DNA of 58,706 nucleotides, counting the filler, from Dugesia japonica (Eukaryota): the NCBI GenBank assembly GCA_001938525.1. It is 5 parts of 5 records of this genome, joined end to end, with 100 filler letters (N's around TTAATTAATTAA, not from the genome) between each part and the next. Parts side by side here need not be neighbours in the genome. Positions count along the whole stretch, not along the records: positions 1 to 11,054 come from MQRL01626412.1; 4 more parts are not named here. One strand, 5' to 3'. The stretch's first letter is position 1; every line of letters begins with the position of its first letter. A program made the position numbers and the translations under genes. Below the pieces are notes generated by a model, which searched no databases, was not told where the DNA came from, and saw only the letters and a program-made list of their open reading frames with translations. Shown in pieces: positions 1 to 46,845 of this stretch.

Positions 1-45
1 AGAAACATTGAAATATAATAATAATTTAAAATCAATCAATTATAC

Positions 46-431
46 CTAAACGTTTTAAATTTCTCGCCACATTAGGCAAACCTTGATCCGCATCCATATT
101 TCCACCAGAAGACATAACTTGATTAATGGGTATATTTTGAACATCAGACATATTTGGGATAACCATGTTTTGATTAAGCATAGATTGATTAACTGGTATT
201 TTGGATAATAAAACATATTTTGATAATGTATATTTGCAACAGCCATAATTTGATAAGGCATACCTTGATTAACTGGTAAATTTTGGTAATATAGTATATT
301 TTGATAATACATGGCTTGAGCAATATTCATATTATGATAATACATTTTTGGAATGGCATATTTTAAGCAGCATTCATAATTGGAATGGTAATGCTATTTT
401 CATAAGTCATATTTTGATTATTATTTTGCAT
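46..431 (-). pseudogene. Q/N/Y/M-rich low-complexity repeat protein, probably an accessory gene of the Polinton-like element
   Basis: ATG at 431 gives MQNNNQNMTYENS..*NMPFQKMYYHNMNIAQAMYYQNILYYQNLPVNQGMPYQ..., then after one frameshift IPVNQSMLNQNMVIPNMSDVQNIPINQVMSSGGNMDADQGLPNVARNLKRL, ending at a G|GTATAA donor. Upstream TATATAAA (529-522) and a 46-nt GTAAGA..TTTAG 5'UTR intron (489-444). Confidence 0.55.
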
Positions 432-1481
432 TTTAATATAAATCTAAATTAAAAAATAAAAATTAATAATAAATTTAAAAATGTCTTACTGTTCAAAGTT
501 TTTCTAGGATTATGTGCTTCGTTTATATACCAAATGGTTACATAATTGAAACAGATAGTTTAAATTAAAATTGAAACGATAAAACAAAAACATTTTTGGT
601 ATCGTTTTCTTAATAATAATAATTTAATTAACATTTAAATAATTTATACTTACTAGGTTCATATATTATTTACATTTTTTTTCTTCACCAAAGATATTTA
701 TTTCTAAATAATTTTACTAAATGAAAATTAAATTAATTTAAATAAATTAAAAATAAAACAAAATTCAATAGACTAAAACTTTACAATAAAAAACTTATAT
801 TTACATTAAAAATTTGATTTACCATAAAAATTACAATAAAACTTAACAATAAAAAATATTCATATTAAAACATTTACACAGTAAAAATTACAAATTAAAT
901 AAGTAACACGTTTTTTATTCAATACATTTATTCAATACAAAATTTCATCAACCATGTTTATTAGTTAAATTTAAAGTCTCACATGTCTCCATAAATTGTT
1001 TATCGATTATTACAAGTCTTTTCTTAAAAAATAAAAATATGAAATAACAATTTACAAATTTCAAACAAATAATCTGAGAAATCTTAATAAAATATTTTTC
1101 AAAAATATTGGTTTTTTAAATTCCAAAATANNNNNNNNNNNNNNNNNNNNNNNNNNNNNNNNNNNNNNNNNNNNNNNNNNNNNNNNNNNNNNNNNNNNNN
1201 NNNNNNNNNNNNNNNNNNNNNNNNNNNNNNNNNNNNNNNNNNNNNNNNNNNNNNNNNNNNNNNNNNNNNNNNNNNNNNNNNNNNNNNNNNNNNNNNNNNN
1301 NNNNNTTTTACATATATATTTATTTATTTTTCAACCTTATAATTTTTAAAATTTTATATTTTAAAAATTTTTAAAAAACGAATCTTAATATTAAATATAA
1401 AAATTAAAAAATCTCAGACATCCGAAATTAATGAATCGATACTCACAATGTTGATTTTTTTTCAGCATATTTGATACTTTT

Positions 1482-1727
1482 TCAGAATATTTCTTCATCC
1501 GCTATATTGTTTTGCAACCATAATAAGCAAAGCGGACCGCAATTCATAGAGAGTAATTTCTGGTACTGGGTTCTATTGTAAATGATAGGTTTGGATAAAC
1601 TCGATAGTTGCGATACTAGTATTGATGGGTAGTAAAATCCGAATGGATCAAATACTATGATATGTTCAGGTTTATGATAAACAGATAACCAATGTTCACC
1701 TCCGAGATTTGAGCTCTGTGTGTTTAC
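1482..1727 (-). pseudogene. Adenain-like (C5) cysteine protease of Polinton/Maverick type, 5'-truncated
   Basis: Manual translation VNTQSSNLGGEHWLSVYHKPEHIIVFDPFGFYYPSIL...YNRTQYQKLLSMNCGPLCLLWL shows the His (GEHW), Asp (FDPFG), Gln and Cys (CG) catalytic motifs. Not in the ORF track. Confidence 0.85.
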
Positions 1728-2099
1728 TCTTTAATCTTTAATCTCTCTTTAATCTCCATAAACGGTATTTAGTATTACAAGTGTATTTGATTAAAATAAA
1801 AATATTAAGAATAATTCATAGTATTCAAACAAATAATCTGAGAAATTTTTCAATAAAATAATAAATAATAAGTATTTTACTTTACATAAAAACTTATAAA
1901 ATATTTAAAAAATATTAACTTCCATTAAATAAATTTTATGTAATATAAGAATTTCATAAATATTTTACCTAATAATTTCAATAAATAAATTGTTTGAAAT
2001 ATTTCATTTTACTTATGTTTTAAAAATAAATTTTAATATTATATATATATTTAAAAATTAAAGAAAGATTTCTCAGATATTTAAATCTATGAATAATTC

Positions 2100-2510
2100 T
2101 TACAAATATAACCAAATATTGAACATTTAAATTACGTGTTCTATGATCACCATCTTGATGGAATAGATTTTGTTTAATGAATATTACAGTAACACCACAA
2201 TGTCTTGATATTTTTGTGAATAAATTATTAAAATCCTTTTCTTTATTAGCTTCTTGATACAGATCATCAACAACAATCANATCACCTGTTTTCGATTTCT
2301 TACTCCAATTGTCATCAAATTCATTATTAATTGTAATTTTTATATCGTAAAATGCTGATTGAGTCATTCCATGCTCCTCATCTGCACTTCTATGCCAATA
2401 TATTTTATTGAATTTCGATTTGAATAAGTTTGATTTCAACAATTTACATACAAACAACGTTTTTCCATTACCACTAGATCCCACAATTTTAAACGTATCA
2501 ATTGAATTAA
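2100..2510 (-). pseudogene. A32/FtsK-like DNA packaging ATPase of Polinton/Maverick type, N-terminal two thirds
   Basis: Walker A GSSGNGKT, Walker B IVVDDL, LFTKISRH, and QNLF..RTRNLNVQYLVIF motifs; similarity ends near 2100, where the sequence becomes AT-rich. Confidence 0.85.
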
Positions 2511-2559
2511 TATTGTTTAAATGGGTATAAATACCACTTTGAAAAAGAATTATTCATAA

Positions 2560-3022
2560 ATGATGATTGCAAATAATAATTAGAGGAAGAGTTGATCAAG
2601 AAGAGACCAGGAAAATGAGATTTCCGTGTGGAAAACCTGTTCAGGTAGTAGAGAAAACAGACAAGTATACCCTTGTTTTCTTTCAATCAGGAAGTTGTAG
2701 AATCATAGTTTGTAAGAAACCAATAAGACCAAAGGATTTAAAGTATAATATCCAGAATATTCAATTACAATCACTTATAGTTGTCCATGATTTGAGAACT
2801 ATGATTAATTTATCTGAATTATCCAAAGTAATCAAATGCATCTATGAACCAGAAATATTTCCAGGATTGAGAATTTCCAAATATTTTCCAATATGTGTTA
2901 ATTTATTTTCAAGTGGACAGATAGTAAAAGGTGGAATAAAATTATTTTATTGTCAATCAATTGTTAATGAAATATTAAACGAATTAATTAATTTAATTAA
3001 TAATTTAAAAACCGTTGTTTAA
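2560..3022 (+). CDS. Compact TATA-binding protein (TBP/TRF)-like protein inside the Polinton-like element; possibly frameshifted near its start
   Basis: Two TBP-like repeats: YTLVFFQSGSCRIIVCK (cf. TTALIFSSGKMVCTGAK) and IQLQSLIVVHDL..INLSEL..YEPEIFPGLR..CVNLFSSGQIVKGGIK (cf. IQNMVGSCDV..IRLEGL..YEPELFPGL..LLIFVSGKVVLTGAK). Intronless; ATG at 2560 is out of frame with the 2567-3022 ORF. Confidence 0.8.
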
Positions 3023-3072
3023 ATTAAGTCATTGTAAGCATTATACACTTTTCAAAATTGTATGATGTATTT

Positions 3073-3803
3073 ATGTCAGAAAAACTGAAGGAAATGTTGA
3101 ATGAAAAAGAACTATTTAATCAAGATGTTGTTATCGATGATGATGATGAATACATGATATCTTTCATGGCATGGAAGAACTATATTTCCAAAAATTATTT
3201 CAGAGACTCAAGGTTGTTTATCTTTGAATTATGAAGATTATCTCAACAAATGTAAAGTTGATCTTGCCAATAATCTGGCAAATTTATTCCTTATTGATCC
3301 ATTTATCGATGCAATGGTGGAAATATCAAACAATGAAATTATACTTTACCATCATGAATAAGAAGAAATATTACAAAGCGGTCTACAAGCTCTTATTCAA
3401 ATTCAATTTCTCGATAGCCTTGTAATACTCAGAAGAATAGAGTTAATAGATAAACTGAAATATAATCCAGATTCATTGAAAAACATGAAATTTCTCATGA
3501 ATAATTTAGTTAAATTTCATAATCTCGAATTGTCAACGGTTGCAAATAAGTTTTATGAGAACTCAAAAGAATCATTAATTAAAGAATACAATGATGATTT
3601 AAGTTATTCAAGTCCAGAATCAATAAATCAAGCTCAAATGAATATAAAACAGAAGGCATTATAGCAGCAGGGATGCAAAATAGAAAGAGATCCAAATACT
3701 TTAAGTAATATTTGTCTTTTTAATAATCTATTTTAATATTATAATTTCAGTGGCCAATTGTCATACTGAACAATCAATGGAATATCGAGTAATATGGGAT
3801 TGA
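3073..3803 (+). pseudogene. ORF-X: orphan gene of the Polinton-like element with a 46-nt intron (3705-3750)
   Basis: MSEKLKEMLNEKELFNQDVVIDDDDEYMISFMAWK...LQALIQIQFLDSL...CKIERDPNTL|MANCHTEQSMEYRVIWD*; stops and a frameshift; homologous to 46120-46845. Confidence 0.6.
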
Positions 3804-4699
3804 ATTAAATAAAATTTACTGTTTTAAACCTGTTTTTATTTATAAAAGTAATAAAATTAACAAAGTAGAAATAAATAAGATAAGACGTTTATTTATACTA
3901 ATATTTATTCAATAAATTTTCATTCAATGTTTTGAGTTGATTTAACTTTCCATATTGGCTTTACTGTTTCTTCCAATTTCTTGTATCCAATTATTTCCAC
4001 TGTAATCTTTGATTTACTTTCTTGAACATTATTTTCTTTAGATTTATAAAGTTTGTTGATTTTAGGTTAATATATTTGTATTTAGTGAAAAATTACCAGC
4101 CGAATAGTATAAATTTCGATAAATTTTGATGTACTTTTGATATTTTCGAAAAATGTCACCGAATTCCGGGAGGGTGGCTGTAAATATTCGTTAGGAAGCA
4201 TTTTTTCCGAGTCAATATTTTAACTTCGCGCAGTCACGTTTTCCTTCTGAGTAAAATAATACCAAATTTGAGTCAATAGCTGTAATCTGGACACAGAGTT
4301 CTGAGCACTAAACTCTGAATTTTGAAATTTTTTCACTACCAAACCTCATTTATTTCATCAAGTATTAGTTTTGGTGATTTTAGGTTAACATATTTAAAAT
4401 CAGTGAAAAGTTCTCTATCGAATAGACAGGTTCTTGACCTATTTTGAGAAGAAAATATTTTTTCGAAAAAATCCTGTGCAAAATACTGGGAAAACCAAAA
4501 ATTATCGCCGTAAAATTCTGAGTCGATATATCTAAAAATAACTATATGTTATAAAAAATTGAAAAATTATTTTTAAAATTTTTGATTCTCCGGATTCCCA
4601 TAAAAAATTGATTTAAAACTTTTTTTAAATTTTCATATTATTTAAGCAACATGAACGGTTTGTCGGATTCCTATAAAAAATTCCCATAAAAATGTTTTT

Positions 4700-4890
4700 C
4701 CCTTATAAAAAGCCTAAAAAATATTACCGCTTAAAAAGCCTAAAAAATATTTCCCAATTAAATACACAGGAAAAAAGTAACACCAGTTAATCCTATTACG
4801 CTAAATTTCACCGATGAAATTAATCTTATGACATAATTTGTGTGCAAAATATTTTCCCAANTAAATACACAGGGAAAAAGTAACACCAAA
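4700..4890. repeat. Short local direct repeats
   Basis: TAAAAAGCCTAAAAAATATT twice (about 4706 and 4732); TTTCCCAAnTAAATACACAGG(A/G)AAAAAGTAACACCA twice (about 4750 and 4853). Confidence 0.7.
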
Positions 4891-5097
4891 TTATGTAATA
4901 ATCTTGAAATTAATTACATTATGTAATGCATACAAATGTGTGCCACCGCCTATTTACATAAGAAAAATACTATGTCACTTATGAAATAATCTTATTACGT
5001 AAACGGGGCGGGGGCTTACTGAATGTGTGTGATGTTGTCCGCCACTATCCATCTACTTCCAACCAAAAAGGGGCGTGAAACGAGCGAAGACCAAAAG

Positions 5098-5388
5098 ATG
5101 ACCCAGGATTTATACCGTCTCGCCAAACGTCGCTGGGAGACCAATACCACTATCGCAGAGCGCAAAGTTAAGCGGTACAAATTTATATGCAGTGCCTTCC
5201 GTAAGGAAGCTGAGGCCTCTCACGCTCAGGAGCGGCTTTGGAAAAGCCAAATTGATTCATTAGCTGAGATCATATGTTCCCTCCATGACCGTGAAAATAA
5301 ACTGGTTACCGACATTTTGGCATTAAGAAAGGCCATGCCACTCAAGCCACTGATGATAGATAAGGCGATACAAATCTCGCGATTATGA
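5098..5388 (+). CDS. Hypothetical basic/coiled-coil protein in a GC-enriched island
   Basis: Open frame of about 97 codons (121 aa from the upstream ATG at 5023) at noticeably higher GC than the flanks; basic N-half followed by a heptad-like hydrophobic repeat. Confidence 0.35.
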   Translation: MTQDLYRLAKRRWETNTTIAERKVKRYKFICSAFRKEAEASHAQERLWKSQIDSLAEIICSLHDRENKLVTDILALRKAMPLKPLMIDKAIQISRL

Positions 5389-5519
5389 CTTTCAGCATCT
5401 CCCCTTGTAAATTTGTAAATAAAAATTGATCAAATCAAACGACATAGCTTTTGTGGCTCCCTTTATTTACATTATACTTAATTTTATTAATTAATTGTTC
5501 CAACTTTCTTCTAATAGAA

Positions 5520-5900
5520 TTGATGTTAATTGTTTCAGTGCCACGAATCCAGCTTCCGACTAGCTTGCGCCGTTGCCATCGTCTGATACAGAAACTGTTG
5601 CTCGAGAGACATAATAAACGCCATAATGAGTGCGCAATTTTAAGACATCTCACCCAAAGAAACCGATTAATTAAGAAATTAGACATCATAGTCAAAAAAC
5701 AAGGCGATTTAGCCGAACAAACAAAAAAAGTTCTCCAGCACAAAATCGCATTCCTAGAGCAATAAATTGCTGACCTTGCCAGTCGTCTTGAGCCACAGAC
5801 ATGGACTCGCTGGAATAGCGGGGACGATCAAGCCGCTTTTGGTTTCATCCCTGAAGAGCCAACCCAGTGGTTATACCCGGGTGCTCTGGATTTTATGTAG
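5520..5900 (+). pseudogene. Hypothetical coiled-coil/leucine-zipper protein with one internal stop
   Basis: ...KKVLQHKIAFLEQ*IADLASRLEPQTWTRWNSGDDQAAFGFIPEEPTQWLYPGALDFM*; Leu heptad continues across the stop at 5763-5765. Confidence 0.35.
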
Positions 5901-6129
5901 TTAATTAGAAATAAATTTTTAATTCTAGTACATTATTAATTCGGTTTTGATAAATTAAATTATAGGGAAAATAAGGAACCCGAAAATAAAGGTATATGAG
6001 TGTGTACTTCAAATAAATGATGGAAGTCAACCGCTCTATACTGAAGACATAATAAGGAGCATTAGGTAAATTCTTGAAAGGGTTTCCTTAGTGCCTTTTT
6101 TCCCAGCCAACTTTTTTCTATCACAAACT

Positions 6130-7393
6130 CAGGTAGGACCCAAACAATATATAATAGCTCCAATCTCTTTCTCTTCAAAATTTCTGCTTTCATCCTGTTT
6201 CATATCGACATAACCATATGCTAGATTGTCTAATTTATTTTCTTCATGAATACACTGAACCTTTCTTGTGTTATGTCGTAATAAGCTGCAATTATTAAAA
6301 AAAATGATTGTCCATACCACATATCAAATAACACTTATTCAAAGGACAGTTTTTTCTGGTATGACTGGACTCACCACAACAATAACATTCTCCTGGTTGA
6401 AGTCGTCATAATTCGGGTTCGGGTAACCCTTTCGCTCTATTATATACTCTTTTTGCTATATGCTTCATGGAAACCATAGGTCTTTGGGGCTTATCGTATT
6501 CATTCGACCTCTTCATAGGTTGTCTTCTCTCTGAATCTTGCAGTTCTCTATTTAAGTTGGAATACTACCTCCCTTGATTATTTACCGATTGTTTGATTAC
6601 CTGTGGTACATTGTGTCTAATTGACCTTATAATACCTGTTACTGCTGCGTATTTTGGCTTAAATTCTCTTTTGCTATCTTCAATTACAATAATTTCTGAC
6701 TTTTCTTCAATACTTATTGAATTTTCAAAATTTGTCGTCAATTTCTCAACTTCTTCCAAGGACATATCTGGGTTCATTGCTATTGACTCCTTTACTTTCT
6801 TGGAGGACATTCGTTTTGAAATTATATCCTTCACGATCATGTCTTTTGTTTACTTCACCGACAAATCTTTTCTTACCAACTTCCTCACTCTTATAGCAAA
6901 ATTTTCAAACCTTTCATTTGATCGTTGATTAACTTGGCTAAAATCGTTGATCTTTTGCAAAAATGTTTTCGACTTGATGTAATTTGAACTGCACCAATTT
7001 TTTGTATCTTCAACTGACAGAATTTTTATTTTTTCTTTGAAGGCTATCCATAATTTCTTCGCGTCACCGAGCACCAATAGATCAAATTCTGCACATAAAT
7101 TTAAAGAACTTGTGGTTACAAAATCTTCAATTGATTGTAGCCACTCTTTCCCATCTTCTTCCTTGTAGCCAAAAAACTTTTTTATTATTGGATAAATTGA
7201 TTCTTGAATATTTTTTGGCAACAATTCTAAAATTTCCATCCGCTGCTGCTCTTTGTGAGAACTGTGATTTCGGCGTATTCGCAAGTTACAATACCAGCTT
7301 AACTCATTAAACTAAAATACAAATACGCTTTTCAAAATTTATTACAAAACACTTTTTTGAATATTTAAACAACAATATTATCTTATTGTTACT
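6130..7393 (-). mobile_element. Ty3/gypsy LTR retrotransposon remnant: short 5' LTR (about 7283-7393) and decayed gag
   Basis: Gag ORFs 6850-7284 and 6565-6840 are similar to the gag at 41.3-42.4 kb (FDLLV/L..ERFENFAIRVR vs ERFATFEIRLR); frameshifted double CCHC knuckle at about 6280-6390; AGTTAC..GTTACT ends. Confidence 0.75.
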
Positions 7394-7904
7394 ATGTATG
7401 CTTTTCAGATAATTTAACTGCAGAAATTTGAGTTTAAATTACTTTAAATATGATTTTCTTGTTTCATCTTCGAATAATTTTCCGGCTTTTACTTAATGTT
7501 GAATTAAATTTATGATGATTAATATAATAAGTATCATTAATTTATTACAAATGTAATGTAATGAATTTAAATTTCAAATAATTTCTTAAAATTTTATGTG
7601 TTGACATTGAACTTTAATGTTCTCAGGGAGCAACTAATATAAAGTACTTGTTTTTCAATTTATTTCATCGAGGATACAGATTGACAATTGTTAACCATGT
7701 TTTTGTTACCCGTCGTAAAATTGTCAATTTAATAGATACTTTGATGGTAAAAACTGAAGGATAAAAATTTTTTCGAATATTCAGTGTTCTTAAATAAACC
7801 TATGTAAAAATACCACTGTAAAATTCAGATATAAAAAATTTAATACCATCAAGGAAAAATTCTAAAATAAATCTATTAAAAATATTATATAGTAACTTAA
7901 ATTA

Positions 7905-8270
7905 AATTAGACGCAATATCTTTTCTCATATACGACGGAAAACCTTGGTCCATATGCTATAACAACTTCCATACCCTCATGTTATTAGTTCAATACAGCA
8001 CCAATTCCATTAAAAAACGGACCTTAGTATCCAGAATGAATTGACTTTCTGAGTTAGGATACTCTAATATTGAAGAGTTACAAAGGGCTTCTTTGATTTT
8101 AGCAAAACTCATCTCGCATTTAGTTGTCTGCACTATCTTGTGCTTTGATCTTCGATAACAGTATATATAGGTGTAGAAAGTTGCGAATTTTTTTTTATGA
8201 ATTTCCTGTGATAGTTTGCTATTCTAAGAAAAGATCGCGACTGTTTAGTAAATTTCCAACTCATATAGTC
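7905..8270 (-). mobile_element. Ty3/gypsy pol remnant (RT thumb/connection-RNase H)
   Basis: RSFLRIANYHRKFI...FAKIKEALCNSSILEYPNSESQFILDT..GIGAVL..EVVIAYG..EKRYCV, with frameshifts. Confidence 0.75.
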
Positions 8271-23250: not shown

Positions 23251-23687
23251 TTTAATTATTTATCCTTAATGATCTATTCTTAATAAAAGATTTATTAATT
23301 ATTTTTATTTATTATAACAAATTTAACTTTACCTATTTCAAGAAAATAAATCTTATTAAATGATTTTCTAACAAATAGTTTTGCTAAAAATAATTTTTAC
23401 TAAACAAATAATATCAATTGATTTATCAAAATGCATGCTGGAGAAGTCAAATTAACATCACAAACCTATTTATTTCCGATTGGCTAGATTTGTTGTTTGT
23501 TATCAATCAAATTTATGAATTAGGTTTCAGTATTACATTGTAAGTTAAACAGTTTTTTAATAATTAACAATTTTTTATTTTTAATATTTTTTATATGTAA
23601 ATTAATTTTTAATGGATATTAATAATTATTAAGCAAAAATTTTTGTAATAAATTATCATTATATAAAATTTAGGAAATATTCAAACA

Positions 23688-24617
23688 ATGAGTGGGTTTT
23701 TATGTACAACTGCGTGTGCTCCTACTTTTCTCCCTGTAAATGATAATGACGAATTGGATCTTAATGTAATTCCTTGTTATTTTGAATATTTATACAAAAG
23801 TGGAATTCGATCTCTATTTATTAACGGTGGATGTGGAGAGTTTAGTAGCATAACAATAATTGAAAGAAAAAAAATTTTAGAAAAATGGATTGAAATCGTC
23901 ACTGGTGATATCGAGATTATTGTTAATATTGGAACAACAAACCTCGCTGATACAATTGAATTAGGAAATCATGCATTATCATTAAATAAAATATATGGTT
24001 TAGGAATTGTACCTCCATTTTACATGTCTATCAATGACGAAAATATGTTAATTAACTACCTAATGACCGTTGCACATTCTTTACATAAAAGAGTTCCAAT
24101 ATTATATTATCATATTCCATCAAATTCAAAAGTTGAAATAAATTTTGAAAAGTTTTTAGATTTAATAAAAATTTATGATTTTAGTCAATTATCGGCAATT
24201 AAATTCACGGACTCTAATTCTGAAATGTTCCATCAACTTTCTAATGGAATTCAATCAAAATCGATTGGGATGAACATTTATTGTGGTTATGAACCTTTAT
24301 TAGAAGAAATGATTAAATCTGGTGCCAAAGGTGCAATTTTAGGATTTGTAAATATCAATCCAAAACTTATTAATTCTGTAATAAATGGAATAAAGGATGA
24401 AATCACAAAATCTAATTTAGATAACTTAATAAAATTATTTCATGCCATTCAGGATTATTCACGAATCAATCGTGTAAATCTAATAGGACTTCTAAAAATT
24501 ACTACTGAATTTTATTCACAAATAAAATTGGGACCGATGAAAAAACCTTATAATATTAACAACGACCAAGTAAAAGAATTCAAAAAATTATTAAAAACAT
24601 ACAATCTTTTCAAATGA
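23688..24617 (+). CDS. N-acetylneuraminate lyase-like / DHDPS-family class I aldolase, single coding exon
   Basis: Intact 309-aa ORF with GxxGE (NGGCGEF), PPFY, YYHIP (as in animal NPL) and Schiff-base Lys in IKFTD. Confidence 0.85.
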   Translation: MSGFLCTTACAPTFLPVNDNDELDLNVIPCYFEYLYKSGIRSLFINGGCGEFSSITIIERKKILEKWIEIVTGDIEIIVNIGTTNLADTIELGNHALSLNKIYGLGIVPPFYMSINDENMLINYLMTVAHSLHKRVPILYYHIPSNSKVEINFEKFLDLIKIYDFSQLSAIKFTDSNSEMFHQLSNGIQSKSIGMNIYCGYEPLLEEMIKSGAKGAILGFVNINPKLINSVINGIKDEITKSNLDNLIKLFHAIQDYSRINRVNLIGLLKITTEFYSQIKLGPMKKPYNINNDQVKEFKKLLKTYNLFK

Positions 24618-33398: not shown

Positions 33399-34026
33399 AT
33401 TTATCAAACAAGACATTTTACATCAAGAGATAAGACAGATCTTTGTTATTCACTTAGTTACTTAAGATTAAATAGTAACCAAATTATTAAAAAATAGTTT
33501 TATTAGGTAATTATTTTTTCAATATTTCAAACTTGTAAATTTGGTGCCATTGTCTAATGTACATATCGGCAATCTAGAATTCACCGAATAATTTGATTGC
33601 ACATCATATTCGCACTGAATTAATTTAGGATGACATCTCGTAGAAAAGCTTTTAGTTTATTACTGGTAAAAAAGACTGGCACATTAACATTACAACCACA
33701 ATGATAACATAAAAGTAGACTGACAGATATACTCAAGATCAGTTTCAGTGCGTACTATGACGTTTATTTATTAAAAAATTGTTTTATGCTAGTATATAAC
33801 TAAATAATCTAAATCCAAAAGTTGACCATCAATATATTAAAGTATGACCCACGATAAAAATCTGGTCAACTCCTGATCAGATACGTTTTCAAAAATAATA
33901 ATAATATCTATTTTCTAGATAAGTAATGAAACATGATTTTACATGATTTTTTAAATAAATATTTATTTATAATTTTTTTTAAAAAAAAACGTTTATAAAT
34001 ATCAATTTGTTCGTTTCAGTTGCGAA

Positions 34027-37000
34027 ATGTCAACACAGAAATCTCCATCATCAATTAATGGACATCAAGTATTGTCTCCAACTGTAGACAATCCAAAATC
34101 TCCTACTCCATGTCATGGAACAGGTATTCTACCAATAAATACTACCATTGGTAAACAAATCAGCAAATTAAAAAGATTCCTATCAACTCTTTTATCATTT
34201 GGAAGTGACATTGATATTACCACTGGTGAAATTGTGAAAAATCTTGTTTTTTCATTGCTTGTAAGTTATTTTTATAACTGATTCAATAACACGAGATCGA
34301 AATCGTTAACATGCTTTAATTCGACATTACTTTCACTATGGTAGATTTCAAAGAATCTATAGTGTTGTGAGAATGCTTATTAACTTCTTTCTCAACAGCT
34401 CTTTCTATGTAGTAATCCATTGGATTAAGATCGGGGGAGTTGCTTTTCAAAATTAAATATTTTTAATTTTAGTTAATTATTCTTGATAAACATAAACATC
34501 AAACGATCAATGTTACAATACCGATTGCACAAAAAGGATTTTCAGTGTGTGATTTTCCATTTTCTAATAAAATTAGCTAATTGTTACTCATTTTCATAAA
34601 ATTTAATGCAATTTCTACAGATAAAACAGTTAAAGATAGTTTTTTTAAATATTAAAATATTTATTTTAAGATAATTTCATAAGGACGATTAATCATTTAT
34701 TATAAACAGTGGCGTAGCAAGAGTATATGCTGTCAGGGGCAGAACCTAAAATTTGACGTCCCTCTCACAACATCAGGAAGAATTATCTAATTTGGTGCAT
34801 TTTTTTATTGCTTGGAAAAAATTGAGAGGAGTATTTTTAAATAATTATGAAAACGGTATCGGAATAAAATTATTTGGGTAATTTATCCCGCTTTTTTGAT
34901 TAATAGAAACAAAAGTTCTGCGCCAAAAGTTGCGGTCCGCTTTCCCTACCTTTCCTACGATACTGATTATAAACACTTATGATTTCATATTTTATTACAA
35001 TATTTTTGACCAATTTTAATTATTTTATTTTATTTAAAAATATATTTAGTGTAATAAAATATCAATTGATCAATTTCAATCAAAGTTACAACATGCTACT
35101 CATTTTCCTTTAAAAGCATTTGTAACACCATTTCTTAAAGCAACATTACCATTACTTCAACAAGAAATAATTCTTTGTTCTCAATTGGTTCATCAAACTC
35201 CAGAAAACTTTTTGTTGCACAACAAAGAATATTTAGCACCTGCTGATTCAAATAAATCGGAAAACATTTTAGAAAATGCAAAAAATTTTTGTCTTGAAAT
35301 GATGATAAACAAAGAAATAAAAGATTCAGAACTACCCAAATCTCCAGATAACGATCATGCTATCAATACTACCGCAAAATCATTTTTCAATAATAAAAAT
35401 TCATTGAAAAGAACTCTTTCGATAAAATTAGAGTAAATTTTTCATTTTTACAATTAATATTATTACAGTCGAACCTCTTTAATGTCACCATTTGTATAAT
35501 ACCGCCCTTCTTATAAACAAAAAAATATATAATTACAAACTTTTACAATTATAATTCATCTCTGTGATGTCTCATTCTTAGCAGTCACATTTTCTATATA
35601 TAATATATGAATATTTGGTTAATATAACTCTAGATAGTCGCATTAGCTTGTGATATAAGACTAAAATTTAAAGAAAATTTGAGAATAAGTTGAAATGTGA
35701 TAAATATATCTCTCTGTTAAAATATGATTTCTTTTAATTTCCAAAACATTAGGTGTAACAAATTTAATGAGTTGTGGATCAATATATATATATAAATTAA
35801 AACCATGAAAAGTAGTTTGTTTGGTGAAATCATTTTCACTCCTAAGATGAATCATTTTCTCTCATGAATTAGCTGCGGTGTTAGTTTTTTCTGCAACTTT
35901 TTAAACTCTTTTTCTTGTCAATCCCAATTTTTTGATCGTTCTACATGCTGTAGATCTGCTGAACATCTTTCTTTGTTACACTTGTTCGAATCTTCCTTGT
36001 TCTTATTTTTGCATTAGGCACGTTTTCACATCATAAAGAGATTTAAAATAAATTAATCTTTATAAATTAATATTATAGTTACTGTTAGATGAGTTTGTAG
36101 TATTCATCAGATCATTAATGTCAAAACACATTTCCATAAAAGATTTATTCACAAAACAAAAACTATGCATAAGAATTTACTTTTTTCAAACAAATATAAA
36201 AATATCAAATATCAGTATTTTGTAAAATATTTAATTTAAAATTTTATATATTTTCTTTTATTTTATTTTAATTAAATTTTTATTGAGGTCAAATTTAAAA
36301 ATACAGTAAAAAAACACATTTCCTTGACAATATTTTATACTCTATTTTATTCAAAATTTTAATAATGTGAAATATTAAAAATACATTTAAAAATATATAT
36401 TTTATTGACAAACAGAAATTTAAACATTTTAAGAAATTATAACAAAATTACAAAAATTTAAATACACATTTATTTATTTTATAAATAATGAAAATGATAA
36501 TTTATTTATTTTATAAATTATTTTGATGATACAAATTTAAATATTTAACAAATCTGATTTCAATAAATTCCACTTTAAAATACAAATAATTCAAATCTAC
36601 TTTTAAAAACTATCTTAAAGTTACAATTATCCATTTGATTTTTAAAAAATCTTTAAATGTATAGTAAAATCTTTTTTTAGCTACACTTGGTATATATTCT
36701 TAATTTATATGTTTTAACATTTCATATATAAATATTATTGAAATTTGTATATATATTTTTGAAATTTTTATTTAGATTAATGCGCAACTATATATAAATC
36801 GTAAGAATAAACCAAAATAAATATAATTTAATTTTATTTCAACAAAATGTCTCCGGTTCCACAAACGTGTAAAAAGCTATAATTTTATGACACATTGGAA
36901 ATTATTAAAAACTGCACTAATGAGAAGAAATCTCAACCATCTGTTTATTAAACGTTTTGAAATTGAAAGAAAGATCCTGAAAAACAATGCTATTTACTGG

Positions 37001-38309: not shown

Positions 38310-39644
38310 TTAAAGTCATATCACTGGCACTTTACTCACAAAACATGCTTTATATTTACCATGATAATCTTCTTGAAAATTTTCTATTATTTTAGCATCA
38401 TTTACTTTTAAATTATAGGGCTACGTTTCATTTTAATTCCAAAATTTTCATAAAAAAACTTCTTACACATATGTACGTGGGAAGCCATAGAATACGAGGA
38501 TGTTGGCTTGAGATTTAATGTATATTTCAAATTTCCCTGTTAGGGTAATTGACTCTGATTAATATCAAACTATGGAGCAAGCATAAAGGTGGAAAATGGA
38601 TATTTGGTCTTAAACTCATCAAGTGTTATTCCACAAATCATATTCTTGTTTCAATATCCTATATATTTAACTATTAATTGCATATATTATGTACTTTAAT
38701 CATCATTTCTAAAGTCTTGGATATAGATCTTTATGTATACTCCGTTTTTTGATAGAGTTATTGATTTAACATTGAAATTATCGAAAAGTGAGCTTTGCAT
38801 TAACAGTTTTCTTTATATCGTTCTCTATCTTGAAATTCAACTAAAATAAAGCTTGGTTATCTTCGATTTCCAAAGATTTGCCCCTTATAAAATGGTGAAC
38901 TGTCTTTATTAATTGCATATAAACAATTTCTTTGGTTCATATAAGATAAATAGGATTAATTAATAAGATTAATTGGTTAATCTAATTTGGTGAGTTGTTA
39001 GTACTGATAAATCTACTAAAACTCTTATAATCATTAATTTTGCATCCAATAATGTATATTTTGATTCATAAATTTTTATTCCATACACAGTCTGGAGTTC
39101 GCTCTTTTCAATCGAATGTAAGCATTGACATCTAGAATAAGATATTTCGGTTGGTCCATGAAGTCTAGTTGAAGAGGACCACATAGAGACGATGATTTTG
39201 ATGATTTAGTGGTTGTTTCTCTAAATTCATCATTTCCATAACTCATTGCATTAAGACATACATNTATTGTATCTCTATTATAATTCAAAATAGTTTCAAT
39301 TAGTGCTTTAGGTATATATTTTCATTTCCACCTTCAACTTTAATATTATGTAATTGAAGAATCACATCTTTAAATAGAGTATGCAACATGAAATTTGCAG
39401 GCACAACATCAGACCTTTATTCCAAATGCTTTCCATTTTTATCAACTACCTTTACATGAACATACAAGAGAGTATCATTCAAATCCAAATATTTAGTTTG
39501 CGATCTATTTATTTAAAATTCTACATCATTTGAACTTTCAGAAATATTATTCTTTGGAAACACATATTTAAATACTCTATTTTTAATAACACCTTTAGGT
39601 TATAGACTTCCGAAAATACAAAATTCATTTTTTCCGCAAGTCAT
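38310..39644 (-). pseudogene. Polinton/Maverick major capsid protein (double jelly-roll), decayed
   Basis: MTCGKNEFCIFG..DVEF..KYLDLNDTLLYVHVKVV..ANFMLHTLFKDVIL..GPLQLDFMDQPKYLILDVNAYIRLKR matches Maverick MCP consensus blocks. Confidence 0.8.
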
Positions 39645-40016
39645 TAGTCAAATATGGTTTTGCATCTTTTCAATAGTTTGTTTATACCCTGCTAAACAGA
39701 ATTCTTACATTTTATTCCACTAACTTTAAGGTTGACTTCGTCCTTTGATTTTGACATCATTTTTGAAAGTTCACCCAATACATAAAGTTGTTGAATTGAT
39801 GTATTGCATTTGTTTTGAGTGATGGTAAATTTTTGCTTTATAATTTATTACACCCTGTACTGTTTTCATTCTAATTGCTCAAATTTGTCTAAGAATTGGC
39901 AAAGCAAATTAACCCAATGTTTGCAACCTTCCTGATCAATCCTGTTTTCCTATAAAGAATGATTATTCTCCAGCTTGTCCGATGCCATATAATGCTATTA
40001 TATCGGGATTAGACAT
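39644..40016 (-). pseudogene. Small Gly-rich core-like ORF between the minor and major capsid genes
   Basis: MSNPDIIALYGIGQAG..GRLQTLG*FALPILR; start abuts the penton stop and its stop overlaps the MCP ATG. Confidence 0.5.
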
Positions 40017-40082
40017 TTATTTTTCTAAAATTTAATGTTAAATAAGTTTTATCGTCTTGAGCAAAGTTGATTAAATCTCGAC

Positions 40083-42499
40083 AGTTAAGTTACTTTCCAA
40101 ATCAGACTTTATTTAAATATTTATTATAAATCAAAATTACACAATTTCTGATAATATTAAAACGAAGTGTTAATCATTGTAACTCTCCCTTTCTTCAAAA
40201 TGCTTTCCACTTCTTTAGCCATTCTATTCTTCTGTACTTTGAACGATGAGCAAATTTGATTTCTACTTGCCGATTGGATATGAACTTCATTATCTGATAT
40301 GGTCCTTAATATTGGAAATCATTCTTCTTTCTTTTGTGTGGTTCTACACGAACTAATATCCATTCCCCCACTTTGAAAATTCTCTGTCCACGCTTTTCAT
40401 TTTCAAAAATTGCCATTTTATTAGCTGCTTCATTTAAATTTTGTCTAACTGTCTCTAGACTATCTGTTTTGTTTTCAAAAATGGCATCCGTATTTGCATA
40501 CAACTTTACTCGCCTTCTTTTTTTCAGTGATCATATTCAGTTGTCGATAATCAACACACATTCTTATCAAACCATCTTTTTATCCAACAATTACGAAAGG
40601 TGAATTCCACGGACTTTTACATTTGCTAACTATCTCAATACTTATTAAGTTCCATATAATTTCGTCAATTTTCTTTTCCAAGTGCATTGGTTGTCTCCGG
40701 GGATATTGAACCATTGGATCTCCAAATCCTTTATTTCGTGTTTTGTTTGTTCTTGTTTTGTATGTTCTATATCAAACTTAGACTCCATGAATATTTCACC
40801 AAACTTCGAAATTAGATCATTTGGATCTTTGTTATTGGTTTCTTTAAGACATTTATGCGTAAGTCTTTCTATCATCGTTTGAGTGGTTTCTTCCCAAACA
40901 TTTAGTTTAAATGATATTAATTTCTGTCAGTTTTATTCTAAAACTTTTCATTGCATCTATCCCACCAATAAATTTTGGTCGTTTCTCTTTAACTATTATG
41001 ATTTTAATAACTCTCATTTTTTTATTCCATTTAACGCTCAGTTCTACACATCCTAACGGCTTCTCTCCACTGCTCGAAAATACCCAATTTAAAATGACAT
41101 TGCAACATAACAAAGATGGTTTTCCTACCTTTAACCAGTACTCTTTGCTCATATCTGTAATCGATGCTCCCGAATCCCACAACATTTCCAATTTTATTCC
41201 ATTCACGGCTCCTCTGCTCCACTTCCGTCTTCTTTTTCATACATCTCTCGTCTGTCTTCATTATTTCGATTTGAGTTATCCCTTCTTAAACTAACTCCAC
41301 TGACTAAATGTATACAACGGAGTTGTTGTGGCTTTTTTTGACATTATATTATGCATTTCAAAGCTTTCATCTTCGTCAGTTTGTACCTCTTGTTCCTCTT
41401 GGATGCATAGAATTTTAGTATTTCCGCTATTAAATCGACCTTGCACAAGAAAGCATTTCCGGAAATTGTGTCCTGCTTTCCCGCATATCAAACATTTATC
41501 TTTTAATTGACATTGATAACGCATATGTCCATGTTCTCCGCAACAATAATATTGTTCTTTTCGTAATCTTTCTTCTTGTGGTTCAGGTAATCCTCTGCAT
41601 CTGTTAAAATGACATCTTGAAATCTGTTTCATCGAAACTATTGGTTTTCTACTTAAATTCTGTGTTCTGTTCTCTGTAATCACCGGTTGTGACATCCTCT
41701 CATTGTATTTTCTCTGATACGTTGACATTTTTGTGCTTGGATTTTTATATCTTAAATTACGATTGGTTATAAAATTAATTGACGGCTGGTTTTGAACTCG
41801 TCTCTCATGACTACTTCGGTCTCCTTTTTACCCATTTGAATAACTCTTTCTCTGTATTGCGTAAATATCCTCATTTCCAGAGATCTCATCTCAGCAACTT
41901 TCATTTCTGGTCTTGTTGTAAGCGTCTCTCGCAAATTTTAATTCTGACTTTCTTTGTCAGAAAATTATTTACAATTTCGTCATTACATAACCCTGAATTC
42001 AATACACAGTTAACTTAATTTCTTAATCGTATCTCGAACGTTGCAAATCTCTCTTCTGATTCTTGTTTAAGGGTTGCAAGCTCCCTTATAATTTCCGTGA
42101 TAGATTTCTTTATTGTAAAAGTGTCTACAAACCACTTTTTTGCATCTTCTTTCGTAATTCTGTCCCATAAAACTCCGGCTTCCTCTGATAACAAGAGATC
42201 GAAAATTCCCACCAAACTTAAATCATTCACAATGCGCTATTCGTCTATTTTTTCAGCCATGATGTAGCTTTTTAAGTATCCTTGCCATCATATTTTTTTA
42301 TATTAAAATTGATCAGCTTCTGAGTCTTATTAGGCAAGGCTTCTAAAATTAATTTTCGTTGTTGGCGTGTAAATACATTAACATTTTTGGCGTGGTTGCC
42401 AGTTAAGTTACTTTCCAAATCAGACTTCCTTTAAATATTTATTAATCAAAATTACACAATTTCTGATAATATTAAAACAAAGTGTTAATCATTGTAACT
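40083..42499 (-). mobile_element. Internally deleted Ty3/gypsy LTR retrotransposon with about 100-bp LTRs (40083-40184, 42401-42499)
   Basis: LTRs end AGTTA..TAACT; PBS TGGCAACCACG overlaps the 5' LTR by 1 nt; PPT GAAGAAAGGGAG; gag with two CCHC knuckles, protease LWDSGAS, RT start fused to the integrase C-terminal GPY region. Confidence 0.9.
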
Positions 42500-43369
42500 T
42501 CCCTAAAGTCTCTTATATTGATTTCTATATTGTTTATACAATTAGTTGATGCATGAAATTTTTGACTATTTGTTAATTATCTTCATAACTCTCCAACCAT
42601 ACTGATTTCAACAAAGAAACATTTGCATCACTAACAATTATAGGTTCAACAATATTACTATAGATGAACATTTGATGAGAGTTGGTGATTATTTTCGGGT
42701 TCCTAACACCTTGGTCGGGATAAGGTATATTTATATTACTTTGAATATATTTGTTTATCTAATCCCAATGTTTTTATCAGGATTCTGTCAAAGGTGAATA
42801 TTTTAACATGTGTTTGCAGAAAAAAACTAAATACTTTATTTTTCTTTAAATTAAATGATTTAAATATATTTCTAAAACCATGTTTTATGTATTCATATAA
42901 TTCTTGCAAATTTGTAATGTATAAATCATCAGAAAACTATACTTTATTTTAATATGTACTGTTTCTCTTGTAAAGTAATCTTTAAAGTCTAGAAAAGGAA
43001 TAATACCCCCACTTTTCATACCGTTGTGTAAACTAATGAATCAAATTCTATTTACATCTTCTAAAGCTTTAAATTCGATATCATAATCATGATATTTTCC
43101 TATTACTAAAAAGGTCACCCCATTAATTACATCAATATCATAGTTTTCAATGCAAATCACATGATTTATTAGCTAAAACATTTATTAAAAGCAATTCTAG
43201 GCAGTAAGAACTAGAATATATATCAGATTTCATTTCAGTCAATAGTAATATTGCCTTTGAAGGATTTTTGTCTAAACTGGCTGCTAAGAATGGTATACTA
43301 ATGTTTTCAATATTTAAACTTGAATTCACGCGCAATAGTTTGAAGTTTCATAATCTTCAATTACCTAAG

Positions 43370-43720
43370 CAGCCATCAGACGTTATGAAATCGATTCATA
43401 AAATATAATGAAATCATTGAACAACAAAATTTATCAAAAATTGTCTGTATGATATCTGAGAAAAAAATTTAGTTTATCCATAGATGAATGGTATAGTTTT
43501 AAAAATCGGCGATATGTGAACATTTAAATTTATTTTTGTAATGTAACCTCGAGTTAATTAAGATGAAAGTTTTTATCCACAGAGAGTGAATACGAATTAG
43601 TAAATATAAAACTTCTATCATTCGAAATTAGTTTTAAAAAAGATATTGTCTCCGTAATAAGCGATGGGCCCTGCATATCACCAACTTTGCTACAATCATA
43701 CTATTCATTACATATGTAAC
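43370..43720 (+). mobile_element. hAT transposase fragment inside the penton gene
   Basis: KFSLSIDEWYSFKNRRYVNI..DIVSVISDG. Confidence 0.65.
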
Positions 43721-44477
43721 ATGTTAAAATACTGTTAAATATTTTTAAGATTTTTATATTTTTTTCATGTCCCCTTTTACAATTTAATTTTATACTACTT
43801 TTCATATTTTTATTTTATATTCTATAGTATTTCTACATATATATTTTTTATGTCTTTCAAAAGTTATTAGCCCATAATATATTATAGTAGTTTTGTTTCT
43901 TTTGATTTTTATTCTTTCGTTTTATGTTGTAAAGAAATCAATTCAATATATTGAAAAATATATCTATACTCGAGATTATCGAAAATTCTAGAGAATTACA
44001 TACATTGTTTCAATTACAGATTTGTTTGAATTCTATACCATTACATTACCTTCTCCGACATTTACAGTCACACGGAGCAAATCCATCGAGGTCCATTAGC
44101 ATCCAATTGAATCCGTTCATAATTGAACTTATCGATCAGCTTGTGTAATTTTAACTAAACTAAGCTCGAGAAATCACAACCTCTAATCAACAGCAATATC
44201 AGTACCAAAACATCTTCTATTTTTATTTTCAACAAAAACAATAATATCCCTCGTTTCTGTTTTTCAAGTTTTAATTTGAATCGTTGCATCTCTATAGATT
44301 GGAAATGTATTATTTATAAAAGCAAAGTCCATCAAAGCTACTTTCCAACTACCATTCAAGTAAATGGGGTTATCAAGTTCAACTATAAATTTACTGGCTT
44401 TATTATCCGGATGAATACGTGTACAAATACTACTAAGTAAAATTGTATAGCAATTATTCGTATTGATCATTTGTTAA

Positions 44478-45210
44478 CTAATTAGGACGCAGATATCCAA
44501 GTAGATTTTTCGTAACCATGACATTTTACATATATTTATATTAACCAGCTCCCTTTGACTTTATAATCTTTTCTATTCTAAATAATGATGCTTGCGGAAT
44601 AACTTGTAATTCTTGTTCAAAAAACCTTCCAACAATAATATTTTCTTCAGGATCTTTAATCACATACAGAACTTGGTTCTTCTTGGTATTGATTTTCGAT
44701 ATTTGAAACACTTCATTATTCCAATGATTATTTAAATTTTTGATGAATGGAGATTCTTACATGATCGCCAACGTTTTATTTAGGTTTTGTAATTGCTTTA
44801 GGTTTTTGTTTCAATAACCATAACTTCATTGAATTTTTAGATGATGCATCAACTGGTCTTGCTCCATTTAATATTTTGTATGATTATAACTGTCGATTAT
44901 TTTCGGTAATACATGAATCCAGATTTAGTTACCAGTTTGTACAAAGTACGTTTTCATAGCAACTCTCAATGTTCGATTAAATCTTTCAACATATGCTGCG
45001 TTGTATTGTGAAAATACAGAATAGTGGTTAATTTTAAGATAAATAATAATATACTTGACTTTTGAATTATAAAATTCTTTTCCTAAATCAGTTTGTAAAT
45101 TATCTGGATGATCATCTTTAAACATTGTTTTGATTGCAGCTTCCATTTCATTAGACGACATGTACTAAATACGTCGATAAATGTTAAAATATACTTGTAA
45201 CTTTTTTTGG
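44478..45210 (-). pseudogene. Retroviral-like (rve) integrase with C-terminal chromodomain, Polinton/Maverick type
   Basis: YKYILTFIDVFS, LQTDLGKEFYN, AAYVERFNRTL (DDE), then WNNEVFQI..GRFFEQELQ..FRIEKII. Confidence 0.88.
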
Positions 45211-45214
45211 TTCT

Positions 45215-45814
45215 TGAATATGGGAGTATTTCCACCAAATCCATCATCAATCCCATATGTTTTTTACGGTCTTTTTGAGAATCTTTTCAATATTGGTTTG
45301 TTCAGACTGTATTCTAACTGGTTCGATAACCACTTTATCTTGGTTAAGATTTACAATTCCTTGAATAACATTTACAACATTCTCTAATAAATCATTAGTA
45401 ACAAACTTTGGAAATTACTGTAGCATCTTTATTGTACACTCTTGTGGAGCCTTAAATAATAATTTTTAATGAAAAGACTTTGTTGAAGTGCCATAATATT
45501 TATTAATTAACACATGCTTAGATTGTTTATAGCTTAAACCATTTACCAGTTGGTGGAATCTTTTAATTCTTCTTTGGTTTTTTCTTGCTAATATTCTTTG
45601 TTTGCTCCTTCCTTTTTTCTTGTTTGCAAACTTTTATTGCTTCCTTGATTGCCTCTTTATCGATTTATTTATTTATTGTTCTCTTTATCAACTTCTTTAT
45701 CAAATTGATATCATTGGTGAGAGTATAATCCTTATAATCAGTTTGATCAGTCATGTGCTTGTTAATCTGTTTAATTGTATGAGGATCTACTAAAACTTTA
45801 GAAAATTTAGACAT
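45215..45814 (-). pseudogene. Two small Maverick-type ORFs between ATPase and integrase (45527-45814; 45215-45494)
   Basis: MSKFSKVLVDP..KIPPTGKWFKL* and ..LFKAPQECTIKML..DLLENVVNVIQGIVNL; tandem, closely packed, with stops. Confidence 0.45.
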
Positions 45815-45837
45815 ATGTAAAAAATATCAACTTTTTT

Positions 45838-46080
45838 TTATAGTATATAAACTGTAACACCATTTGGATTGAAAATATTAGTTCGAGTTCTAAGATCATC
45901 GAGACATTGTTATGTAAAATCCAGAAAAGTATCCATTAGAAATTGCTGTTGCATCTTTAAATGAATCCAATAGAAATTGTCGATTAATTAAACACGATTG
46001 TCTTGCTAGAAAATCAACAACAGTTTGATCTATTGGATTTTTAAATATCATCGAATATTGAACATTTAAATTAAGTGAAA
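45838..46080 (-). pseudogene. Packaging ATPase C-terminal part
   Basis: LNLNVQYSMIFKNPIDQTVVDFLARQ..FLLDSFKDAT..NGY..DDLRTRTNIF; overlaps and continues the copy-1 ATPase motif NLNVQYLVIF. Confidence 0.85.
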
Positions 46081-46119
46081 CCAAGCATTGTAAAATTTTC
46101 AAAAATAAGATTATGTTAT

Positions 46120-46845
46120 CTTTTTAGAAAAAAAGAAGGAATTATTGAAAGAAATAGAACTTAATTAAACAAGATGTTGGAATTAAAGACGATGATGAAT
46201 TCATAATATCTTTTTAATATGGCATGGAAGATTTATTATTCCAAAAATTATTTCAGAGACGTAAAGTCAAAAAATGTAAAATTGATGTTGCTGATAATTT
46301 AACTAATTTATTCAACCTCGAACCATATATTGGTCAATGGAGAAAATATCAAACACTGAATGTTCCTTTATCGACGTAAATTAAAATAAACATTACAATT
46401 TGGTCTACAAGCTCTTATTCAGATCAAATTTCTAGATAGTCTTGAGATTATCAGAAGATTAGAATATTTATATTAACTGAAATTTAATCCAGATTCGTTG
46501 GAAAAAATGACATTTTTAATGGATAATTTAGTTAAATTTCATAAATCTGATATTTTAACAGTTGAAAATGAGTTTCGTGTGAATGAAAAAGAACCATTAA
46601 TCAAAGATTACAATAATGTTTTAGGTTACTCAAACCCTGAATAGATAAATCAAGTTCAAATGAGTATTAAGCTAAAAGCATAAGCATTTGCATTAAGACC
46701 ACAACATGAATGCAAAATGGAAAGAGATCCAAACACTTTAAGTAATTTTGTTGCTTTAATAATCTGTTTTAATATTATAATTTTTAGTTACCAAATGTTA
46801 TACAGAACAATCATGGGAACAAAGAATAATATAAGATGGAATTTA
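46120..46845 (+). pseudogene. ORF-X second copy with a 46-nt intron (46742-46787)
   Basis: Nucleotide and peptide homology to 3073-3803. Confidence 0.6.

Follow-up and report, generated by a model that had tools for sequence, protein, structure and literature searches.

The likeliest function of the intact Maverick TBP-like protein is that of a late-promoter factor acting via host TFIIB and Pol II, a reading that we regard as probable given the sequences of the family and a predicted structure. For a wider proposal the chances seem about even to us: a large lineage of animal Mavericks would encode an altered-specificity, regulator-proof TBP of ~150 residues, which needs nothing else than TFIIB and Pol II of the host to drive YATAAAC promoters in an early-to-late cascade, i.e., an orthogonal one-protein switch that would have evolved independently of the herpesvirus late system. 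The copy that we describe from Dugesia japonica is dead, and the relevant biology lies in its family.

The window, i.e., the whole stretch of 58,706 nucleotides that was analysed (filler included), is eukaryotic and AT-rich, and contains remains of retroelements as well as host genes that are split by introns. Among its other contents are a frame of 316 codons without introns that belongs to the DHDPS/N-acetylneuraminate lyase family (23667-24614, + strand, E 3.8e-29) and host-gene exons with a TAFH/NHR1 domain (33973-35433, + strand). The TBP-like gene shows the following features:

2560..3022 (+): decayed TBP-like gene; its start region is not in phase with the open frame 2567-3019
2563..2710 (+): repeat 1 (N-lobe) with S1, short H1, reduced stirrup without Phe99-equivalent, S3-S5
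2681-2683 (+): Phe116-equivalent of repeat 1, position by alignment
2711..2767 (+): link replacing helix H2, 19 codons, proline-containing
2768..3019 (+): repeat 2 (C-lobe), including the C-terminal helix H2'
2843-2863 (+): acidic TFIIB-type stirrup of repeat 2
2906-2908 (+): Phe207-equivalent of repeat 2

The open frame of 151 codons matches Pfam TBP (PF00352) in repeat 2 only, with E 4.9e-8 and above the cut-off. Together with the presence of the motifs quoted in the preliminary description, this bears out its claim of a minimal TBP-like protein at 2560..3022. The lack of an N-terminal tail, also claimed there, is true as well, but it is nothing unusual: P0003 and other archaeal-type TBPs have no tail either. 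With regard to decay, which the preliminary description did not point out for this copy, the first codons and the main frame are in different reading frames, several near-invariant sites of the family are changed (including the end of S5, from which one of the quoted motifs was taken), and the neighbouring genes are truncated or broken. The stirrup Glu for TFIIB is present in the window copy. RNA reads over the region are few (1,310 in X22, 116 in X23, 0 in X21), mostly less than 95% alike, and come from other copies; the same strand bias is seen over the oppositely oriented ATPase, and the reads give no support for expression.

Genes for an A32-type ATPase and an adenain protease are Maverick/Polinton genes, and fragments of both are found beside the TBP-like frame, which lies back to back with the ATPase and near the protease:

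1446..1727 (-): adenain-type protease fragment (Peptidase_C5, E 0.0018)
2104..2496 (-): A32-type packaging ATPase, N-terminal two-thirds only (Pox_A32, E 4e-5)
3060..3700 (+): broken gene of the same element; its intact relative P0162 (229 aa) has no family match
38498..46832 (-): second remnant of the same element family, with ATPase C-terminus, core-like gene, integrase and capsid-like genes, without a TBP-like gene

A retroviral-type integrase, protein-primed PolB and double jelly-roll capsid are absent from the TBP-bearing remnant, and no long terminal inverted repeats are found in window positions 1-8000; the copy is a fragment. Over 800 bases, the second remnant shares 74% identity with the first; it also lacks the ATPase start, and gag-protease retroelement sequence interrupts it near 40.9-41.8 kb. 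About 10,000 contigs per DNA run fall on 1400-3760, such that the element family is highly repeated in the organism. P0162 was considered as a TFIIB-like partner and dropped, given neither a family nor a structure match.

Relatives were collected in two ways. A sequence search over 1.84 billion representatives gives 269 matches with E values of 0.001 or lower; the best 150 of them are a mix of family members and ordinary TBPs. Motifs served to anchor 128 of 178 sequences (91 family sequences and 37 ordinary TBPs), while 50 partial or unanchored ones were dropped. In a metagenome scan, for which 80 of 457 confirmed loci are listed, at least 25 of these 80 carry family members (L006-L029, L031), and the inspected others among the 80 encode ordinary TBPs. 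A Pfam match to ATPase, adenain, integrase or PolB is present in 7/25 family loci, most other family loci being shorter than 3.5 kb; the ATPase of L028 is recognised by alignment. L027 combines PolB, ATPase, integrase (rve) and capsid-like genes, and rve is also found in L017. The capsid and core labels used throughout rest on weak matches (for the capsid, DJR E 0.039) and gene position. The TBP-like gene often adjoins the packaging ATPase (window, L008, L027, L028). None of 76 neighbouring frames, which include those of an 18-kb nearly whole element and otherwise come mostly from short loci, matches the TFIIB family. Scans of viral contigs, in which P0001 as well as ATPase, capsid and integrase sequences served as queries, yielded no Maverick loci, and no match was found in phage records; the five matches obtained with alignment A2 turned out to be ordinary or giant-virus TBPs.

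Beside these genes, several further ones recur. A conserved gene of 115-130 aa without Pfam match often neighbours the TBP-like gene (L008, L010, L012, L014 at 576-923, L015, L016), with two copies in L016 and longer look-alikes in L022, L024 and L026. Another conserved gene of ~155-180 aa, also without Pfam match, lies between protease and TBP-like gene (L009:3360-3857, L018, L019, L020, L027:6492-6953); its start presumably resembles a DEDD exonuclease motif. The elements further carry accessory domains, i.e., leucine-rich-repeat, RING-finger, KilA-N and parvovirus-type phospholipase A2, in the following genes (by domain matches):

L018:1609-1971
L021:1304-1843
L017:1665-2168
L027:8990-9391

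In L017, a 40-nt GT..AG segment (376-415) that looks like a short spliceosomal intron splits the TBP-like gene, which is in keeping with nuclear Pol II transcription.

We compared the residues on the DNA face and the partner surfaces, using yeast TBP numbering and equivalents assigned by alignment, not by atomic superposition. Positions outside the published lists follow what we take to be the yeast numbering. The published ones are those of Table 1 in PMC12529657 and of the accessible part of PMC1636458. The equivalents of the two stirrup residues Glu186 and Glu188 are kept in 85/91 and 89/91 family sequences, respectively. Concerning the four intercalating Phe of canonical TBP, which the preliminary description had singled out for checking, three are retained (Phe116 in 90, Phe190 in 90 and Phe207 in 91 of 91), while Phe99 of repeat 1 is lost: an aromatic residue is found in none of the 85 family sequences with a residue there, compared to 37/37 ordinary TBPs. 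The Asn69- and Pro191-equivalents are mostly kept.

Other DNA-facing positions are replaced. In repeat 1, the Val71-equivalent is Asn in 72/91 sequences, the Val122-equivalent Arg in 85/88 and the Thr124-equivalent Met in 96/98, the latter two counted in alignment A1 since counts in the 91-sequence set would be circular for a motif that defined the group. In repeat 2, we observe Ser/Thr for Asn159 (91/91), Thr/Ser for Val161 (90/91), Arg for Ile194 (78/91) and Asn for Leu205 (91/91). The DNA face is rewritten in both repeats, with polar residues, and family-wide. The earlier statement that repeat 2 is well conserved hence holds for its TFIIB stirrup and Phe residues, but not for its DNA-facing positions.

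To relate this to promoters, we counted words within 100 nt before gene starts in 22 family loci, with the near-duplicates L011 and L019 dropped. YATAAAC, the top 7-mer without prior choice, precedes 36/70 non-TBP gene starts, while shuffled sequences reach 2.15 on average and 7 at maximum (0/500 reach the observed count). On the other hand, it precedes only 1/21 TBP-like starts, and in the control set of ordinary-TBP loci it is found before 3/239 starts (mean 4.1 in 50 shuffles). The word is strongly oriented: 63 occurrences share the strand of the genes, compared to 5 on the opposite strand. For ATPase, capsid-like, integrase, protease, core-like and PLA2-like genes, a list made by hand after an earlier look at the word data, 20/23 starts are preceded by it, and the three misses show one-base variants. 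The sites in the window are:

2514..2521 (-): YATAAAC-word site before the divergent ATPase, imperfect in the window copy, complete in related copies
45531, 42538 and 39686: YATAAAC in the second remnant, surviving before three genes
2526-2533 (+): ordinary TATA box (TATAAATA) before the TBP-like gene, a putative promoter element
2554-2559 (+): TCATAA word before the TBP-like gene, likewise a putative promoter element

TBP-like genes differ in their upstream words: TCATWW is found within 45 nt of 16/18 starts and an ordinary TATA box before 6/18; the small number with such a box counts against our preferred explanation. TGTTTWA is also enriched there (14/21 in L006-L028, shuffle mean 2.8; window 2514-2520), but was not adopted as a TATA substitute because its spacing varies from 27 to more than 55 nt. 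The link between YATAAAC and the TBP-like protein is a co-occurrence in one lineage, as seen from sequence alone. It nevertheless fits the suggestion of the preliminary description that the protein may bind a non-TATA sequence, which would then hold jointly with retained TFIIB contacts. The H2-keeping loci L027 and L028 use the same word, so the loss of H2 is not what sets specificity.

In an alternative that we consider unlikely, host TBP/TFIID or another host factor reads YATAAAC, and the element's TBP acts as a decoy or repressor, either by sequestering TFIIB or by occupying promoters of the host or of the element. YATAAAC is only one base away from a standard TATA box, and the retained stirrup Glu would serve a decoy equally well. 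Furthermore, ATAAACA fits the forkhead consensus. A forkhead reader is at odds with the strand statistics, since the commoner forkhead word GTAAACA shows no bias (11 vs 7) while both ATAAACA (51 vs 10) and ATAAACG (17 vs 1) do. With regard to host TBP itself, some TATA variants are tolerated: by its title, 1qn3 is a crystal structure with a C(-25) variant, in which the matching position is C. Ordinary TBP disfavours C at position 7 according to the accessible part of PMC1636458. A decoy, finally, would leave the near-invariant polar residues across the DNA face unexplained.

It is improbable that the protein is not a Pol II promoter factor but bends DNA for replication, integration or packaging, or acts as a Pol III partner. 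The acidic stirrup is also used by Brf1/Brf2, but these need in addition the N-lobe basic surface that is missing here (both from the accessible part of PMC7221094). The frequent position of the gene beside the packaging ATPase could point to DNA bending, while YATAAAC lies before protein-coding genes at promoter distance, and nothing in a structural role would explain why the TFIIB Glu are kept.

The recognised variants of the poly(A) hexamer include TATAAA and CATAAA. We consider it very improbable that YATAAAC serves the upstream gene as a signal for polyadenylation or termination and is unrelated to the TBP-like protein, which would then have some other target. Among 30 sites with both a stop codon and an ATG nearby, eight overlap the upstream stop, and the word is near 22/44 gene ends that are followed by another gene, compared with 8/37 where no listed gene follows. 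However, 12 of these same 30 are located over 25 nt deep in the coding sequence of the upstream gene, and another 13 sites precede an ATG without a stop codon nearby, nine of them at 32-43 nt from the ATG. Related copies even carry the word before the divergent ATPase, where there is no upstream gene on that strand.

The preferred reading, i.e., a late-promoter factor that works with host TFIIB, also draws on the architecture of repeat 1. From the Gly125- to the Gln158-equivalent (end of S5 to the next strand), P0001 and the window copy have 19 residues, compared to 32-35 in 36/37 ordinary TBPs; the median is 21 for the 91 family sequences and 33 for the 37 ordinary TBPs, with a few values mis-anchored. 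Ahead of S4, repeat 1 is shorter by another ~10 residues, which shortens H1 and reduces the stirrup (Asn69- to Phe116-equivalent: 37 residues vs 45-56 in 31/32 ordinary TBPs). The idea that this is a decay deletion in the window copy only, suggested by its out-of-frame start, changed near-invariant sites and truncated neighbours, is refuted and retains practically no probability, since the intact relative P0001 (153 aa) aligns with the window frame without gaps (123/146 identical, 84%), 72/91 family sequences have a short link without H2 (sorted by eye), and link-spanning contig pieces of DNA run X1 show 0-2 gap letters at ~83% identity. P0002 (63% identity) has the same short link as the window copy; a full H2 in intact copies, named beforehand as the observation that would overturn the claim, is thus not seen in either relative. 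Among 1,660 contigs of X1 on 2480-3060, listed indels occur only at 2534-2583 and none in the link; from 2724 onwards, three contigs of X1 and two of X8 continue with a different sequence.

Structure prediction and superposition, proposed in the preliminary description, agree with this. The AlphaFold model of P0001, based on a 100-sequence alignment, reaches pLDDT 96.1 and pTM 0.85, while folding of the single sequence yields pLDDT 34. Its predicted order is S1, a five-residue H1, S3-S5, a turn, S1' and a complete second repeat, with a shrunken first stirrup. Between S5 (45-51) and S1' (64-77) there is no long helix but a three-residue turn. Over its whole length the model superposes on TBPs with Z 13.6 (rmsd 2.5, 147 aligned), while the next unrelated fold has Z 6.9. 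The best Foldseek matches are TBPs too (E 8e-9, covering residues 1-150), and Pfam TBP matches two stretches of P0001, i.e., the two-repeat saddle fold of the TBP family is recovered. The shortened repeat 1 is, as far as sequences and model tell, a family trait and not decay, and the earlier picture of a degenerate repeat 1 with a short link lacking H2 (19 vs 32-35 residues) stands.

The remaining 19/91 family sequences have a helix-like acidic link, mostly of 25-32 residues. In the 13 of them that were counted, the first 22 link residues hold 1-4 Lys/Arg and 2-6 Asp/Glu, compared to 4-6 Lys/Arg in the same stretch of seven eukaryote-type TBPs. Taken together with the short link elsewhere, both grades have thus lost the basic regulator patch, and one of them the helix as well. 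In two trees, a strong branch (support 100 and 99) splits the family from ordinary TBPs, while the order of H2 loss events differs: using all columns, the no-H2 group forms one side of a branch (91, quick tree), whereas with the trait columns dropped the H2-keeping group does (94) and the no-H2 group needs two changes.

In the accessible part of PMC7221094 (Ravarani et al.), TFIIB binding is placed on the two stirrup Glu, while TFIIA, TAF1, Brf1/2 and Mot1 bind a basic cluster with three residues in the N-lobe H2, identified as R137, R141 and K145 in that of PMC10491584. Given these assignments, the loss of the regulator surface follows, and the earlier proposal that TFIIB contacts are kept while the TFIIA/TAF1/Mot1 surface is lost finds support in the conserved Glu (85 and 89 of 91) and in the predicted absence of H2.

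For the late-promoter factor, we propose the following course. The TBP-like gene would be transcribed early, from the other promoter type and by host factors. The intact protein would then bind YATAAAC in preference to TATAAAAG. Its remodelled N-lobe would face the 3' half of the box, which includes position 7 with its unusual C; this is the half read by the N-lobe of TBP, and ordinary TBP disfavours C there (PMC1636458, accessible part), such that the most altered lobe may fit the altered half of the word. Via the retained acidic stirrup, host TFIIB would dock on the C-lobe, followed by recruitment of host Pol II; the host protein is proposed as partner since the elements show no TFIIB-like gene among the 76 neighbouring frames. 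Lacking the basic H2 surface, the complex would not be evicted or masked by the host regulators TFIIA/TAF1/Mot1.

If true, the wider proposal would offer a first handle on the timing of capsid genes in Mavericks, and a named protein, DNA word and residues are now available for the question of how these elements switch on their virion genes. A TBP that folds without the N-lobe H2 would reveal the least that the saddle requires, and would uncouple the recruitment of TFIIB from control by TFIIA/TAF1/Mot1. In addition, a natural pair of TBP and promoter that works orthogonally to the host's would be useful as a transcription tool.

Compared to cellular and archaeal TBPs (PF00352; PDB 5fur_A, 7o4i_O, 1mp9_B), the Maverick protein shares the two-lobed saddle, the acidic C-lobe stirrup and three of four intercalating Phe, but its core is ~25-30 residues shorter. 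Relative to cellular TBP, most of the family has no N-lobe H2 and the rest an acidic one, the first stirrup is reduced with the Phe99-equivalent lost, and the Val71, Val122, Asn159, Val161, Ile194 and Leu205 positions are polar. The C-lobe stirrup Glu for TFIIB is present in the family, while the canonical basic cluster of the N-lobe H2 is not.

TBPL1/TRF2 and yeast TBPm3 are alike in their changed DNA specificity and keep a full-length N-lobe. TBPm3 is altered at 194, 203 and 205, changes reported to alter TBP specificity in the accessible part of PMC1636458, and the Maverick family is changed at the same three positions. TBPL1 has Trp at the Phe116 position (PMC7221094, accessible part), where the Maverick family keeps Phe.

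Viral TBP mimics are an already known kind. Those of giant viruses and poxviruses are likewise virus-borne folds that have lost N-lobe signature residues, with a proposed evasion of Mot1/BTAF1, and their TBP homologues are among the structural matches of the P0001 model in the viral library. According to the accessible text of PMC7221094, which contains neither 'Polinton' nor 'transposon', they mostly travel with their own TFIIB and have a stirrup conserved to ~40%. The Maverick stirrup is conserved to 93-98%, and none of the 76 neighbouring frames, from mostly short loci, gives a TFIIB match that would complete such a TBP-TFIIB pair. The MELD virus maps of Starrett et al. (PMC8502044, bioRxiv 10.1101/697771) label a TBP-like gene in midsize integrating dsDNA viruses; in the accessible text these are legend labels alone, which may or may not denote the Maverick family, without mention of structure, helix loss or promoter word. 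Within the openly available text, these labels are all we found that connects TBP with Polintons, Mavericks or adintoviruses. A supplement file of PMC8502044 gives no match, and a word search finds no mention of TBP in PMC11131425, PMC11161782, PMC12220804 and 10.64898/2026.10.13.758929.

A parallel in function is offered by KSHV ORF24 and EBV BcRF1, described in the accessible part of PMC12529657 as viral TBP folds with polar swaps on the DNA face that use a TATA variant before late genes and host Pol II; the P0001 model matches BcRF1 weakly in structure (E 4e-3). ORF24 reads TATT late promoters and has Asn or Ser at positions 114, 122, 124, 161 and 205, several of which are also polar in the Maverick family. 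In contrast to P0001, a bare 153-aa core without large multi-domain architecture, ORF24 is 752 aa long and carries its N-terminal Pol II-binding function and additional DNA binding in domains of their own. It keeps all four Phe, and a section heading of the same source calls the ORF24 model incompatible with TFIIB binding, while the Maverick stirrup is intact.
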